IMG/VR virus record: IMGVR_UViG_3300047509_000177
Location: 1 to 64,000 of that record
Source of the DNA: a virus
Strand: one strand, 5' to 3'
DNA length: 64,000 nt
Every line of letters starts with the position of its first letter. The first letter of the stretch is position 1. Of the stretch, positions 44,121 through 54,445 are shown piece after piece. The position numbers and the translations under genes are program-made. The notes below the pieces were generated by a model, which was given only the letters and a program-made list of their open reading frames with translations, had not been told where the DNA came from and did not search any database.

Positions 44121-44216
44121 TGCGCCTGGGGAGAATTGAACTCCCGACCTCCTGTTTGAAAGACAGGCGCTCTTTGAGACCCCGAAGGTTCTCGTTTACC
44201 ACTGAGCTACAGGCGC
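44121..44216 (-). tRNA. tRNA-Glu(UUC) with an extra hairpin in the D-loop
   Basis: Acceptor GCGCCTG/CAGGCGC, D-stem GCTC/GAGC, anticodon arm CCTGT-CTTTCAA-ACAGG, T-arm GGGAG-TTCAATT-CTCCC; 96 nt; CCA not encoded. Confidence 0.8.
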
Positions 44217-44222
44217 ATGAAG

Positions 44223-44305
44223 TGCGGGAGACAGGATTCGAACCTGCAAGCCCTTTCGGACAGACCCTCTTAAGGGGTCCGCGTCGCCAATTGCGCCACT
44301 CCCGC
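44223..44305 (-). tRNA. tRNA-Leu(UAA)
   Basis: Acceptor GCGGGAG/CTCCCGC, anticodon arm GACCC-CTTAAGA-GGGTC, long variable arm, TTCGAAT T-loop, discriminator A. Confidence 0.92.
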
Positions 44306-44364
44306 AAGAAATCGGCCGAGAAGAATATCATAATAGATTCTCCCCGGCCGAGTAAATCTACTTA

Positions 44365-44715
44365 TTAACCGCTATAGCCATCATCCTTGTTACCAGAAAT
44401 GACGCCAGTACCAGCCAGCTTAGACAGCTTACGAGCCACGTTACGAGCATCGACACCAAGAGCCTTGGCGATGTCCGTGGTCTTCACGGCGGCAGAACCT
44501 GGCGCAGAGGTAAGCTTACCAACAGTCTCTATAACCTGCTCATCAGTAACAACAGAAGTTGACACTCCCTTGCCGCTTTTCTTGAGCTTCTTGAGAAGTG
44601 CGGCAAGTTCATCGCGCTCATCAACTAGGCCAGCAACCTTCGACTTGATCTCATCTTCAACCTTCTGAAGCTTGCCCTCAATTTCTTGGGCTAGCTTATC
44701 TGCAACTGCGCTCAC
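44365..44715 (-). CDS. Coiled-coil + winged-helix DNA-binding protein
   Basis: TTDIAKALGVDARNVARKLSKL..TGVI wHTH; SD AGAGGAG. Confidence 0.75.
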   Translation of the reverse strand: MSAVADKLAQEIEGKLQKVEDEIKSKVAGLVDERDELAALLKKLKKSGKGVSTSVVTDEQVIETVGKLTSAPGSAAVKTTDIAKALGVDARNVARKLSKLAGTGVISGNKDDGYSG

Positions 44716-44760: not shown

Positions 44761-44790
44761 ACAATAGCATACATAGAAAGTGAATGTCAA
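44761..44790 (-). promoter_or_regulatory. Promoter for the wHTH-tRNA operon
   Basis: TTGACA-18-TATTGT with TG extension on the minus strand. Confidence 0.65.
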
Positions 44791-50921: not shown

Positions 50922-51155
50922 ATGTACGAGTACAGAATACGTTGGAAAAGAAAAGGTTTAAAAAGTAGATTAAAGATATATCAAAATATAGGCAATGCAG
51001 AAAAATTTATAGAGACTTTGAAAGGAAATTATTATAGAGATGATCCAAATTATGACGGCGAGAATGGAATTGATTATTATGAGAAAGTTCCTGAGCTAGA
51101 AAATGATCCTGTTATAGAAAAAAGATCAGTAGGTACATGGTCTAGATATAGATGA
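50922..51155 (+). CDS. Hypothetical protein
   Basis: MYEYRIRW...EKRSVGTW; coupled to dnaE. Confidence 0.5.
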   Translation: MYEYRIRWKRKGLKSRLKIYQNIGNAEKFIETLKGNYYRDDPNYDGENGIDYYEKVPELENDPVIEKRSVGTWSRYR

Positions 51156-54100
51156 TACATTTACATCATCATGACAGCGATTCTATTTTAGATGGTTTAG
51201 GAACTCCACTTCAATGTGCAGAAATTGCTGCCGAATTAGGTCAGACATCTTTAGCTCAATCAAATCATGCAACTTTAAGCGGGTCACTGAAGCATATAAA
51301 GGCTTGTAATAAAGTAGGAATACAACCCATATGTTCCGTGGAGGGATATTTTCGCCCAAATCGCCTCGTAAGAGATAAAGATTGGAGATTCCGTAAGTGG
51401 CATTATCTTCTTCATGCTAAAAACCTCAAGGGCTGGCATAACTTAATTAAGATCACCAGTGCCGCTTTTGCAGATGGAATGTATCAATTCCCATGCTTTG
51501 ACTGGGAGTTATTAGAAAAGCACCACGAGGGCCTAATCGCCAGCACGGCTTGCATATTAGGCCCGCTACCATTTCTAATTGAGAATGGTTCTGAAAAAGA
51601 AGTAGATGATTTTGTTGTAAGAACTAAGAAGATATTTGGTGAGGATTTCTATATAGCGATCATGCCTCACGATTTTGACCGTCAGAGAGCAGTAAATTTA
51701 GAGCTAATATCGATAGCAAATAAACACGGAGTTCCAATTGTATATGAGGGTGACTCACATTACCCTAAAAAAGGTTGGGTAGATACTCAAAAGATAGCCA
51801 TTCTCATTGGAACTAATTCTACAGTCGCAGATGCAGATGCGCAGAATAAAGAGAGACTAGAAAATAATGAAGAGATTTATGAGCTTTGGCACGATGGTCT
51901 TCATATTATGGGAGAGGGCGAGGTAAGAGAAACCTTTGCGCGAAATCATCCCGACATTCCTAGCAATATAATTGACGAATCTATCTCGAATACTGATTAC
52001 ATTGGATCAAAAATTGAACCCTTTCTCATGAATAGGTCAGTCAAGATGCCACGGGCAGGAAAATCGCCGAGAGAAGCTGAGGATAAAGTAATTCAATGGT
52101 GCTGGGCAGGAATGGAGGATAAAGGATTAAGAGGAAATAAAGTATATGAGGATAGGTTGAAGTATGAGCTAGAAGTAATTAGAACAAGAGGCAATTTCGA
52201 TTATTTCTTCATTACGATTGATTGGGTAAAGTGGGCTCGTAGCGCTGATCCTCTCCCTGGCGATTCTGCGCCGAAGAAACCTATGCGTATTGGATCAGGG
52301 CGTGGATCAGTAGCTGGGTCTCTTGTTTCATATCTTTGTGGTATTACTACGCTAGATCCTATCGCTTATAAGCTGAAGTTTGAGAGATTTCTGAACCCTG
52401 AAAGAAAGGGGCTGCCAGATATAGATGTAGATTTTCCTAGTAAAAGAAGAAACGAAGCAAAGGAATATCTTGCTAGGAAATATGGGGAGAAAAATATTGC
52501 CGATGTAATAGCTCAGCAGCATTTCCAGCCGAGAGCTGCTCTGAAGAATGTTACTAAGGTAATAAATGGTTTTGATAGCGAAGCATACAATGAAATTGCT
52601 GATATATGCCATGAAAAATCAGGTCTGATAGATCCTGTTCATGATACTAATTTGGAAGTTATGAGAGGAAGAATTGCTGAGCTAGACCAATGGGCTGGAA
52701 AATGGCCCGAGGAGTGGAAACAAGCTGTCAGATTAGAGAACGGTGGAGACCCATTCTGCCTGCGTATCAGTAAGCACGCGGCGGGAGTGGTTATTACCCC
52801 CGGAGAAATAACAGATTTTATGCCTACGCTTCGTTCCGATGAGAAGGAGGTAGGAGCTAGAACAGCTTGGTCAGAGACTCCAAAGATCTCTATCGTTGAG
52901 GATTTCGGATTTGTGAAGTGGGACGCGCTTGGCCTTACTGGCATGGATCAGCAGCAGATGATAGTAGATCAGATTTATGATAGAAGCGAAGAATATATTG
53001 ATTTAGATAATCTACCTATATTAATTGATCCTATGAAAGTAGATTCTAAAGTTATGCAAGCTTTTCAAGATAAAAGGACACTAGGAACAAACCAGTTCCC
53101 AGGAAATGGTGTGACTTCTTTTATGGCTAGGGCTAAACCTGAAAATGTTATTGATCTTGCTGCTGTTAATGCCTTGTATCGTCCTGGTCCTATGGGGAAA
53201 CAAGGACATTTTCATTATGCAGATAGAAAGAATGGTAGAAAAGAATATAATATACCTGATATTTTAAAACCATATCTTTCTGATACTTATGGATCTTTAT
53301 GTTTTCAAGAGTCTGTAACCGATCTTTTTGAGATTTTGGCAGATTATACTCCTGGTCAATCAGATGGTATTAGAAAGATCATCGCTAAGTTATATCGCGA
53401 GAAGGGGCCGGTAGCTGAGGAAGAGCTTGATAAACATAAAGAAAAATTTATTCAGAAAGCTTCTGAAAAGATAGGGCTAGAAGAATCTGAAAGATATTGG
53501 GAGGAAATACTTCCTTACACTGATTATTCATTCAACAAGGCACATTCTTCTGGGTATGCAGTTCAAGCTTATCAAGATCAATGGTTGAAGGTGAATTATC
53601 CTCTTGATTTCTATTCAGTTATTATGACTTTAGACCCGAAGATTTCTTTACAAGCTATAAAGGAGGCTAGATATTTTAACATAAAAGTTCTTCCTCCTGA
53701 TGTAAATATTTCTAATTCAGATTATACTCCTGACTTTGAAAATAATGCTTTACGTTATGGTCTTTGTGGCATTAAAGGAATTGCGCAAACGTCAGCGGAT
53801 CAAGTAATGAAACTCCGGCCATATTTCTCCCTGGAAGACTTCAATAAAAAGCATGAATTTAAATACTCTAAAGTTAATAAAGGCCACCGAGACAAGCTAC
53901 TTAGAGTTGGTGCTTTGGATTCATTGGGTGGCAGAAAAGACTGGTCGGACAGTGAAAAATCGGCGGAGGAGATTGAGTTGTTAGGCATAAGTCTCTCTGA
54001 TGGAGGAACATTTGGTGATGATGAGAAGTATATAAGAGAAAAAGTTCATTCTGAAGAAGAATATAATAATCTTAATGTGGGTGATAAGGTAGTTGCGGCA

Positions 54101-54445
54101 GGACAACTTGTAGAGATAAAGAAAATAAAAACTAAGAAAGGAAAGAATCCCGGACAAGATATGGCATTTGCGAAAATATCTTTTGGTTTAGATTCTTTTT
54201 CTTGTACTGTATTCCCAAATGTATTTTCTTCTTATAAGGATTTGTTATCTAGCGGCAACAAGGTTGTTATAAGCGGCAATAAGGACGAAAGAGGAATCAT
54301 TGTAAATGATATAATTGCAGTTGATGATTTTGATCATTGGACAATTTGTCCTCACGATAGATTTAAAGCTTCTCAGTCTGTAAAAGAAATGCAGGATAGA
54401 GGAGAACTTCGACAGGATTCTGGCCCAGAGGGAGACCCGCATTGA
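51152..54445 (+). CDS. dnaE: DNA polymerase III alpha subunit
   Basis: PHP domain HLHHH...LDG, GSGRGSVAGSL, FERFLNPER..LPDIDVDF, HAAGV, YRPGP, FNKAHS, C-terminal OB fold. Confidence 0.95.
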   Translation: MIHLHHHDSDSILDGLGTPLQCAEIAAELGQTSLAQSNHATLSGSLKHIKACNKVGIQPICSVEGYFRPNRLVRDKDWRFRKWHYLLHAKNLKGWHNLIKITSAAFADGMYQFPCFDWELLEKHHEGLIASTACILGPLPFLIENGSEKEVDDFVVRTKKIFGEDFYIAIMPHDFDRQRAVNLELISIANKHGVPIVYEGDSHYPKKGWVDTQKIAILIGTNSTVADADAQNKERLENNEEIYELWHDGLHIMGEGEVRETFARNHPDIPSNIIDESISNTDYIGSKIEPFLMNRSVKMPRAGKSPREAEDKVIQWCWAGMEDKGLRGNKVYEDRLKYELEVIRTRGNFDYFFITIDWVKWARSADPLPGDSAPKKPMRIGSGRGSVAGSLVSYLCGITTLDPIAYKLKFERFLNPERKGLPDIDVDFPSKRRNEAKEYLARKYGEKNIADVIAQQHFQPRAALKNVTKVINGFDSEAYNEIADICHEKSGLIDPVHDTNLEVMRGRIAELDQWAGKWPEEWKQAVRLENGGDPFCLRISKHAAGVVITPGEITDFMPTLRSDEKEVGARTAWSETPKISIVEDFGFVKWDALGLTGMDQQQMIVDQIYDRSEEYIDLDNLPILIDPMKVDSKVMQAFQDKRTLGTNQFPGNGVTSFMARAKPENVIDLAAVNALYRPGPMGKQGHFHYADRKNGRKEYNIPDILKPYLSDTYGSLCFQESVTDLFEILADYTPGQSDGIRKIIAKLYREKGPVAEEELDKHKEKFIQKASEKIGLEESERYWEEILPYTDYSFNKAHSSGYAVQAYQDQWLKVNYPLDFYSVIMTLDPKISLQAIKEARYFNIKVLPPDVNISNSDYTPDFENNALRYGLCGIKGIAQTSADQVMKLRPYFSLEDFNKKHEFKYSKVNKGHRDKLLRVGALDSLGGRKDWSDSEKSAEEIELLGISLSDGGTFGDDEKYIREKVHSEEEYNNLNVGDKVVAAGQLVEIKKIKTKKGKNPGQDMAFAKISFGLDSFSCTVFPNVFSSYKDLLSSGNKVVISGNKDERGIIVNDIIAVDDFDHWTICPHDRFKASQSVKEMQDRGELRQDSGPEGDPH

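Follow-up and report, generated by a model that had tools for sequence, protein, structure and literature searches.

The stretch of DNA analysed here (the window) covers the initial 64 kb of a viral record of 91,381 bp, which has 41.7% GC and is rated 98% complete by CheckV. On its minus strand, at 44121..44216, lies a tRNA gene with the anticodon UUC whose D-loop holds an entire additional hairpin, and the locus raises the question of what such a tRNA does and why a phage would carry it. Judging from sequence comparisons we consider it probable that the gene encodes a working elongator tRNA reading GAA, that it stems from a conserved five-armed family which replaced the tRNA-Glu(UUC) of the host, and that the phage carries it to raise its decoding capacity.

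The tRNA gene and its fifth arm

The gene is 96 nt long, has no encoded CCA and is recognized by the Rfam tRNA model RF00005 with 67.7 bits (gathering 29; E 3e-14), the match spanning the whole model (positions 1-71) with a single 25-nt insertion, located in the D-loop. Together with the sequence itself and with its homologues, this bears out an earlier note on this DNA, which had described a gene of the tRNA-Glu(UUC) type with a hairpin in its D-loop. ARAGORN also detects the gene, leaving its anticodon unnamed (‘tRNA-???’), and in intron mode mistakes the extra hairpin for the anticodon arm. The stems of the cloverleaf are Watson-Crick throughout (acceptor 7 bp; D 4 bp, GCUC/GAGC; anticodon 5 bp; T 5 bp), the anticodon loop CUUUCAA provides U33, the anticodon UUC and A37, the variable loop is AGGUC (5 nt) and the discriminator is A73. 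The nucleotides of the tertiary fold, U8, A14, G18G19 and the T-loop UUCAAUU, are all in place. As far as its letters can tell, the phage gene is shown to be intact.

The D-loop measures 31 nt and reads AGUGGUAAAC, then GAGAACC-UUCG-GGGUCUC, then AAA. The fifth arm, GAGAACC / UUCG / GGGUCUC, occupies 44176..44193 on the minus strand, exactly where the earlier note had placed its tetraloop hairpin; it begins after G18-G19-U20 and is flanked by the conserved linkers AAAC (5') and AAA (3'). The perfect pairing described previously holds for the four cloverleaf stems and has to be amended for the hairpin, whose seven positions consist of six pairs and an A.G mismatch, at the fifth pair, that had gone unmentioned. 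The position of this mismatch is identical to that in a host variant of the arm, GGCAACC/GGGUGCC. The minimum-energy fold retains the extra hairpin (ViennaRNA; -37.9 kcal/mol, z -2.72), and its existence is further indicated by the covariation described below.

[quoted passage not shown] All four anticodon-loop determinants are present in the five-armed tRNA. Its body has C11-G24, C13-G22 and a 5-nt variable loop with nucleotide 47 and hence has no ‘augmented D-helix’; the departure from the E. coli D-arm set that the earlier note had remarked upon is real when the sequence is compared with that published set (PMC9976931). The identity elements of class II LysRS are U35, U36 and A73 (PMC9976931), of which U35 and A73 are found here, position 36 being C.

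Distribution and covariation of the five-armed family

We define the family by a helix of seven positions with a 4-6-nt loop following G18-G19-N20, the linkers NAAC and (A/G)AA, the acceptor stem GCGCC(C/U)G and the anticodon UUC. A genome search pattern calling for a CUUUCAA loop and for an insertion of 16-38 bases separating GGU from GAGC matched in at least 120 species-level genomes; 118 of the matches listed are complete homologous tRNAs of 95-97 nt, comprising 32 distinct sequences, and nearly all of the matches listed come from MAGs titled Solirubrobacterales or Solirubrobacteraceae (the bacterial genomes used throughout are mostly MAGs). The same pattern found eight viral contigs and an anticodon-free pattern four more, giving 12 contigs other than the one studied here, nine of which have the anticodon UUC. 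That 118 or more bacterial genomes and 12 viral contigs have the insertion at the same site and with the same size is far more than chance would give, and the uniqueness that the earlier note had allowed for was not seen. Other anticodons occur on the scaffold as well: UGC (for the Ala codon GCA, with no G3.U70) in the related phage G011 (L204:2235-2335), away from the syntenic site, and CCU (for the Arg codon AGG) in two other viral contigs (L202:2145-2248; L203:3503-3606). These UGC and CCU versions are unaccounted for by a simple reading of the scaffold as a Glu tRNA.

The pairing of the family was assessed in an alignment of 40 distinct sequences, with 500 shuffles and slid partners as controls. 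Overall, 98.9% of cells are paired, as compared to 84.9% after shuffling and 36-50% with slid partners, and the observed pairing values were reached in none of the 500 shuffles. In the extra arm, 96.4% of cells are paired and six of the seven pairs vary on both sides. Such strong covariation indicates that the extra helix is under selection, and covariation among the homologues supports the five-armed tRNA of the earlier note, the arm being a selected structure rather than a random insertion. The size of the arm is fixed: of the 32 distinct bacterial sequences from the matches listed, 30 have 18 nt and the other two 17 and 19 nt. Across the 40 sequences A21, A22, A43 and A44 of the linkers are invariant or nearly so, C23 and A42 reach at least 90%, the D-stem is also invariant or nearly so, and U33, a purine at 37, U8, A14, G18G19 and the T-loop UUCRA are invariant.

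A structured insertion might also be a mini-intron, a hairpin excised to leave an ordinary four-armed tRNA. Archaeal tRNAs contain short introns at non-canonical positions, the D-loop included, which lends the idea a precedent; the D-loop minus the 18-nt hairpin would be 13 nt, only slightly over the usual length, and a splicing signal would likewise appear as a conserved helix. However, a bulge-helix-bulge (two 3-nt bulges and a 4-bp helix) can be drawn in none of the 40 sequences, their helix being uninterrupted save for a single mismatch at most, the hosts are bacterial, and the fixed size of the arm and its near-invariant linkers are as one would expect of a structural part. The missing bulge-helix-bulge and the fixed size and linkers make excision so unlikely that we give it hardly any weight; an archaeal-type intron had been thought unlikely from the outset, and the missing motif sustains that judgement. 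We infer that the extra arm remains in the mature tRNA, which would then be an ordinary cloverleaf with a 7-bp, tetraloop-capped helix leaving the D-loop just after G18-G19-U20.

Under even sampling, 51 of 61 genomes of the genus to which the complete genome G001 belongs have the five-armed tRNA, and the 10 negative ones are 1.5-3.2-Mb assemblies, mostly small. Outside the genus it was found in one of 60 other genomes of the family and in none of 120 genomes of the class; further genera supply other arm types. In the samples taken, the five-armed tRNA is restricted to this clade.

The tRNA sets of these bacteria suggest what became of the ordinary gene. G001 is a complete 3.57-Mb host-type chromosome with 47 tRNAs, in which the sole Glu-bodied tRNA has the anticodon CUC and UUC is present twice, in the five-armed tRNA and in a 71-nt tRNA. 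This 71-nt tRNA(UUC) (L141; G001:C1:419040-419110, minus strand) has the D-loop AAUGCA (no G18G19) and the T-loop CUCGUAC (no UUC), is absent from all 60 other genomes of the genus (60/60) and is perhaps part of a mobile element. In 41 genomes of the genus there is essentially one copy each of the Glu-bodied tRNA, and the variants that were read are all CUC, the one exception being a canonical Glu(UUC) from a single MAG, on a contig of 3.3 kb. The host tRNA-Glu(CUC) has U11-A24 and a 4-nt variable loop. G166, a member of the family without the arm, keeps a tRNA-Glu(UUC) of the canonical four-armed type, in which U11-A24 and U13.G22 are accompanied by a 4-nt variable loop. Since this armless relative has the canonical gene and the sampled genus has no other conserved UUC tRNA, the ordinary gene was apparently replaced: the five-armed type appears to have taken the place of the ordinary tRNA-Glu(UUC) in a clade of uncultured soil Solirubrobacterales.

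The acceptor stem of the five-armed tRNA is identical to that of host tRNA-Arg(CCG) and tRNA-Arg(ACG). Two oddities were met in the same tRNA sets. In G195 the only Glu-bodied tRNA of the genome (L210; G195:C8:36434-36518) has an 8-nt anticodon loop, CUUCUCAC, with a one-base insertion relative to its CUC relatives, and G001 carries a 73-nt class I tRNA(UAA) (L147) besides a normal class II tRNA-Leu(UAA).

The Solirubrobacterales clade is the likely host group of the phage. The phage copy aligns gap-free with the bacterial consensus and is 83-85% identical to the nearest variants, its stems being AU-richer, and this degree of identity together with the AU-richer stems argues that it is not a recent capture. 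The earlier note had spoken of a hairpin grafted into the D-loop, which is wrong as far as the phage is concerned, since the five-armed type is what a bacterial clade has as its own UUC tRNA.

Decoding of GAA and the phage locus

A tRNA of such unusual shape might be non-translational or mistranslating, for instance a decoy for tRNA nucleases, a non-ribosomal aminoacyl donor, or a vehicle for a lysine-like residue at GAA. Its body is unlike that of tRNA-Glu, U35 and A73 are LysRS determinants (PMC9976931), the gene has a linked LysRS paralogue whose pocket is acidic (discussed below), and several other tRNAs of the phage are irregular too. The codon sites give a different picture. In nine invariant Glu columns of 26 host LysRS-family genes GAA is used at 57 of 234 codons. 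Across the 40 GAA sites of the phage pol III alpha, the values in distant homologues are E 0.33, D 0.14 and K 0.08; its GAG sites give E 0.40 and K 0.09, and its AAA sites K 0.24. The phage helicase follows the same trend, its invariant Glu155 being encoded by GAA. On these statistics (host LysRS, phage pol III alpha and helicase) we reject a recoding of GAA to lysine, and by the evidence of the codon sites GAA is glutamate in host and phage alike.

One feature of pol III alpha (window 51152-54445) might nevertheless be counted in favour of mistranslation: in columns at least 70% conserved among distant homologues, Glu is encoded by GAG 10 times and by GAA once. Lys is, however, encoded in such columns by AAG 11 times and by AAA twice, and there is no comparable skew for TTA/CTT, AGA/CGT or GAT/GAC. 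Conserved sites would therefore seem to avoid the two codons that are read by split-box U34 tRNAs, and the parallel between Lys and Glu makes the preference for GAG look like a general effect of codon accuracy. Furthermore, the sampled host genus has no other conserved UUC tRNA and uses GAA for about a fifth of its Glu codons, invariant catalytic ones included, the GAA sites of the phage are Glu-like and not Lys-like, and the tertiary-fold nucleotides are all intact. We consider a non-translational or mistranslating role improbable. The mischarging and decoy functions that the earlier note had raised are disfavoured by GAA at invariant catalytic Glu residues of host genes and at Glu-like positions in phage genes, and are also at odds with sampled hosts that have no other conserved UUC tRNA.

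In this group of phages, much longer homologues of the helicase (P0028, P0046, P0089, P0106) contain the intein-type Pfam domain PF14890, as do longer homologues of pol III alpha (P0148, P0169, P0173), from which it appears that inteins interrupt the replication genes of the group. The helicase and pol III alpha copies in the window are themselves uninterrupted.

Returning to the elongator tRNA that we favour, the reason for its presence in a phage may be sought in codon usage. In the phage, Glu is encoded by GAA in 61% of cases, Leu by TTA in 28%, Arg by AGA in 43% and Ser by TCT in 41%; the bacterial loci, with a mean GC of 68%, have shares of about 22%, 1%, 2% and 4%, figures that the GC3 filter makes approximate. 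The phage tRNAs have the anticodons UUC, UAA (twice), UCU, AGA and CAU, a set that fits the codon bias of the phage itself. Because these tRNAs match codons which the phage favours and its presumed host rarely uses, compensation of codon supply is the simplest reading, and most likely the five-armed gene supplies the phage with extra GAA-reading capacity. An AT-rich phage would thus bring its own diverged copy, some 85% identical to the bacterial ones, along with further tRNAs for A/U-ending codons (UUA, AGA and UCU) that are rare in a host of about 68% GC, and the set together would provide more decoding capacity for phage messages.

A class II tRNA-Leu(UAA) lies 6 nt upstream of the five-armed tRNA (44223..44305, minus strand) and is kept at this site in the related phages L002 and L003, and upstream of both tRNAs is a 116-aa ORF (44365..44715, minus strand) with a weak match to PHROG 37426 and a homologue at the same place in the relative L001. 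Two promoter-like sites, each identified by consensus match only, lie on the same strand: TTTACT-18-TATGAT (9/12; 44327..44356) just upstream of tRNA-Leu, and a stronger one, TTGACA-18-TG-TATTGT (10/12; 44761-44790), upstream of the ORF. Three related phages, with helicase identities of 48-60%, have no five-armed gene at the syntenic site, at which tRNA-Leu(UAA) is kept (the closest helicase relatives have 61-67% identity; the locus comparison covers those at 48-60%), and the gene's absence from that site in three relatives marks it as accessory. The 3 kb surrounding the gene gave no megablast match among GenBank phages, and a distant blastn of the five-armed tRNA aligned ordinary tRNA-Val and tRNA-Thr of phages over their 3' halves only. 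Nothing came from a narrower tRNA pattern in the viral contigs or from searching loci with the helicase as the only protein; it was an alignment-based search that found the relatives. In the bacteria, no conserved gene neighbourhood of the tRNA was found across the G001-type genus, where the neighbours vary by genome.

Other tRNA genes of the phage lie beyond the window and have irregularities of their own. A 95-nt tRNA with an 8-bp acceptor stem, a 4-bp T-stem and a long variable arm (genome 74142-74237; L184:4142-4237, plus strand) scores 45.1 bits with the Rfam tRNA-Sec model (gathering 47), and its loop CCUUCAU gives UUC in register and would give UCA after a one-base shift. Two class II tRNAs with A73 (L184:3719-3803 and L184:3901-3986, minus strand) have bodies nearest to host tRNA-Leu and anticodon loops with AGA (for the serine codon UCU) and CAU, the latter being drawable also with a 9-nt loop. 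A 75-nt class I tRNA with the anticodon UAA and no long variable arm (L184:1346-1420, plus strand) adjoins a transposase fragment, the ORF at L184:856-1266 being of the IS1595 type (Pfam DDE_Tnp_IS1595, 5e-30).

The charging enzyme and comparison with known systems

The five-armed tRNA is presumably charged with glutamate, although GluRS cannot be taken for granted as the enzyme, since the body lacks the D-arm determinants that the E. coli GluRS needs. One candidate is the single GluRS of the host, in which case the arm might do the work of the augmented D-helix. More generally, the arm may be a recognition element for whichever enzyme charges the tRNA, taking the place of the augmented D-helix missing from the body. 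We put the chances of GluRS a little short of even, those of a LysRS paralogue lower and those of neither, or of some other enzyme, lowest.

The paralogue deserves attention here. G001 and G002 have one GluRS each and two full-length LysRS-like genes each, and the second of these (LysRS2) is found 120-2650 nt upstream of the tRNA in 32 of the 118 bacterial loci among the matches listed, co-oriented in all 32. The sample of the family has the extra paralogue only in the two tRNA-bearing genomes, G001 and G152 (the 59 other genomes in this tally include G135, flagged as unpublished, and the claim is independent of G135), and of the other stand-alone LysRS genes read in that sample 12 of 13 have a canonical pocket. 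In a quick tree with SH-aLRT support only, the LysRS2 genes form one clade apart from the canonical enzymes (SH-aLRT 95). With residues given in E. coli numbering, mapped via PDB alignments, LysRS2 keeps the catalytic residues, and Y280, R412, N424, F426 and E428 are replaced identically in 23 tRNA-linked genes; Y280 and F426 are residues of the lysine pocket (PMC12546413). In human LysRS, a Glu contacts U36 (PMC11643047), and at that position about 15 of the 23 linked genes have Gln.

The phage itself encodes a LysRS-like class IIb synthetase of 435 aa with an OB anticodon domain (genome 76677-77984; L184:6677-7984, minus strand), 12.7 kb past the end of the window. Its pocket has the changes Y280F, R412A, N424S, F426A and E428D, and replacements of the same type are found at these five positions in four phage enzymes; at the U36-contact position the phage enzyme has Lys. 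With respect to the NCBIfam cut-off for LysRS, the bacterial paralogue lies above and the phage enzyme below. Homologues are present in all three related phages (G011, G012 and G013).

These observations raise the possibility of a dedicated pair, in which LysRS2 and not GluRS charges the five-armed tRNA, the arm together with U35 and A73 serves as identity marks, and the phage brings both halves. A remodelled pocket with retained catalytic residues in the linked bacterial genes and the phage enzymes, the altered U36 contact, the co-oriented linkage, the single clade, the occurrence of the paralogue with the tRNA beside a lone GluRS, and a tRNA body with no GluRS D-arm determinants all fit such a pair. 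Several points count against it. Position 428 stays Asp/Glu and R412 is lost, so that the more acidic pocket would suit a cationic amino acid and not glutamate, yet GAA is glutamate; no new basic pocket residue able to bind glutamate is common to the bacterial and phage paralogues. In the same tree the phage enzymes form their own long-branch clade outside LysRS2, only some two thirds of the linked genes have an altered U36-contact residue, and the synteny and the co-occurrence may each stem from a single ancestral event. The enzyme is moreover core to the phage family, whereas the tRNA is not: the LysRS-like gene fails as a predictor of the five-armed tRNA in the phages G012 and G013, which have the enzyme without the tRNA, and in the bacterium G166. 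Conversely, the 11 other tRNA-bearing viral contigs, expected on this reading to carry the LysRS-like gene, all lack it (0/11), and four of them are at least 94% complete. We regard the dedicated pair as possible, if rather doubtful.

The case of G166 bears on the same point, in that a LysRS with a variant pocket adjoins tRNA-Lys(UUU) in a genome with a normal tRNA-Glu(UUC). This stand-alone enzyme (G166:C17:21475-22914) has Y280F, S385W, R412G, N424S, F426S and E428D and lies about 200 nt from the ordinary tRNA-Lys(UUU) (L231:211-283), in divergent orientation. The other LysRS domain of G166, with canonical motifs, is part of a 1190-aa LysX-like open frame.

In its strongest form, the proposal would see in the fifth arm what identifies the tRNA within a naturally orthogonal pair: tRNA(UUC) would be charged by a class IIb enzyme derived from LysRS, and the pair serving GAA would be unrelated to the GluRS and tRNA-Glu that serve GAG. 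This we offer as speculation, with the odds well against it. Were it true, glutamate would have to be attached by a class II enzyme, or else GAA and GAG would differ chemically in some hidden way. Whichever enzyme is responsible, the locus poses a question of tRNA identity: how a tRNA with no GluRS D-arm determinants obtains its glutamate, and whether a co-evolving LysRS paralogue is involved.

To our knowledge, long variable arms aside, nearly all cytoplasmic tRNAs have the four-armed cloverleaf. The present D-loop helix is conserved and covarying, occurs in 12 viral contigs and no fewer than 118 bacterial species, and belongs to what is in the sampled hosts the only conserved reader of a common sense codon. 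Our literature search for a D-loop arm, or for a LysRS paralogue tied to tRNA-Glu, returned no description, though absence there is no proof, and the accessible portion of a review of non-canonical tRNAs (PMC7609411) contains no case of a D-loop arm. The phage gene is also a clean case of a phage copying an idiosyncratic tRNA of its host clade and may serve as a marker for host prediction, and the compact natural arm, as a possible identity element, is of interest for the engineering of orthogonal tRNA pairs.

In comparison with the canonical bacterial tRNA-Glu(UUC), the five-armed tRNA shares U33, UUC, A37 and G1-C72 and presumably the same job, the reading of GAA as glutamate. It differs in a body that is unrelated, with C11-G24/C13-G22 instead of U11-A24/U13.G22, nucleotide 47, A73, a tRNA-Arg acceptor stem and the 18-nt D-loop arm. 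A natural extra helix on the cloverleaf is shared with the class II tRNAs (Leu, Ser and bacterial Tyr), tRNA-Sec and the allo-tRNAs. The long variable arm stays in the mature tRNA and for Ser is an identity mark for the synthetase (reviewed in PMC7609411 and PMC9976931). Unlike the helix of all these tRNAs, which stands between the anticodon and T stems, that of the five-armed tRNA lies beyond G19-U20, on the opposite side of the core. The archaeal non-canonical introns are likewise short structured insertions in tRNA genes, sometimes in the D-loop, but the five-armed tRNA has no bulge-helix-bulge, a bacterial and phage setting, a fixed size and conserved linkers.

Similar comparisons can be drawn for the phage gene and for the enzyme. 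As with phage tRNAs that offset a codon mismatch, the anticodons fit A/U-ending codons which the phage favours and the presumed host rarely uses; unlike in those cases, the type that was copied is the unusual five-armed tRNA of the host clade, and the other tRNAs of the phage are irregular too. EpmA/PoxA, LysX and engineered orthogonal pairs resemble LysRS2 in being a duplicated class IIb LysRS with an altered pocket, linked to one special tRNA. LysRS2 is, however, full length with an anticodon-binding domain, unlike EpmA, and has no MprF fusion, unlike LysX. [quoted passage not shown] The natural arm lies on the other side of G18-G19 and, if the function proposed here is true, RNase P, the modification enzymes, EF-Tu and all three ribosomal sites would tolerate a module in a loop where the engineered insertion failed.
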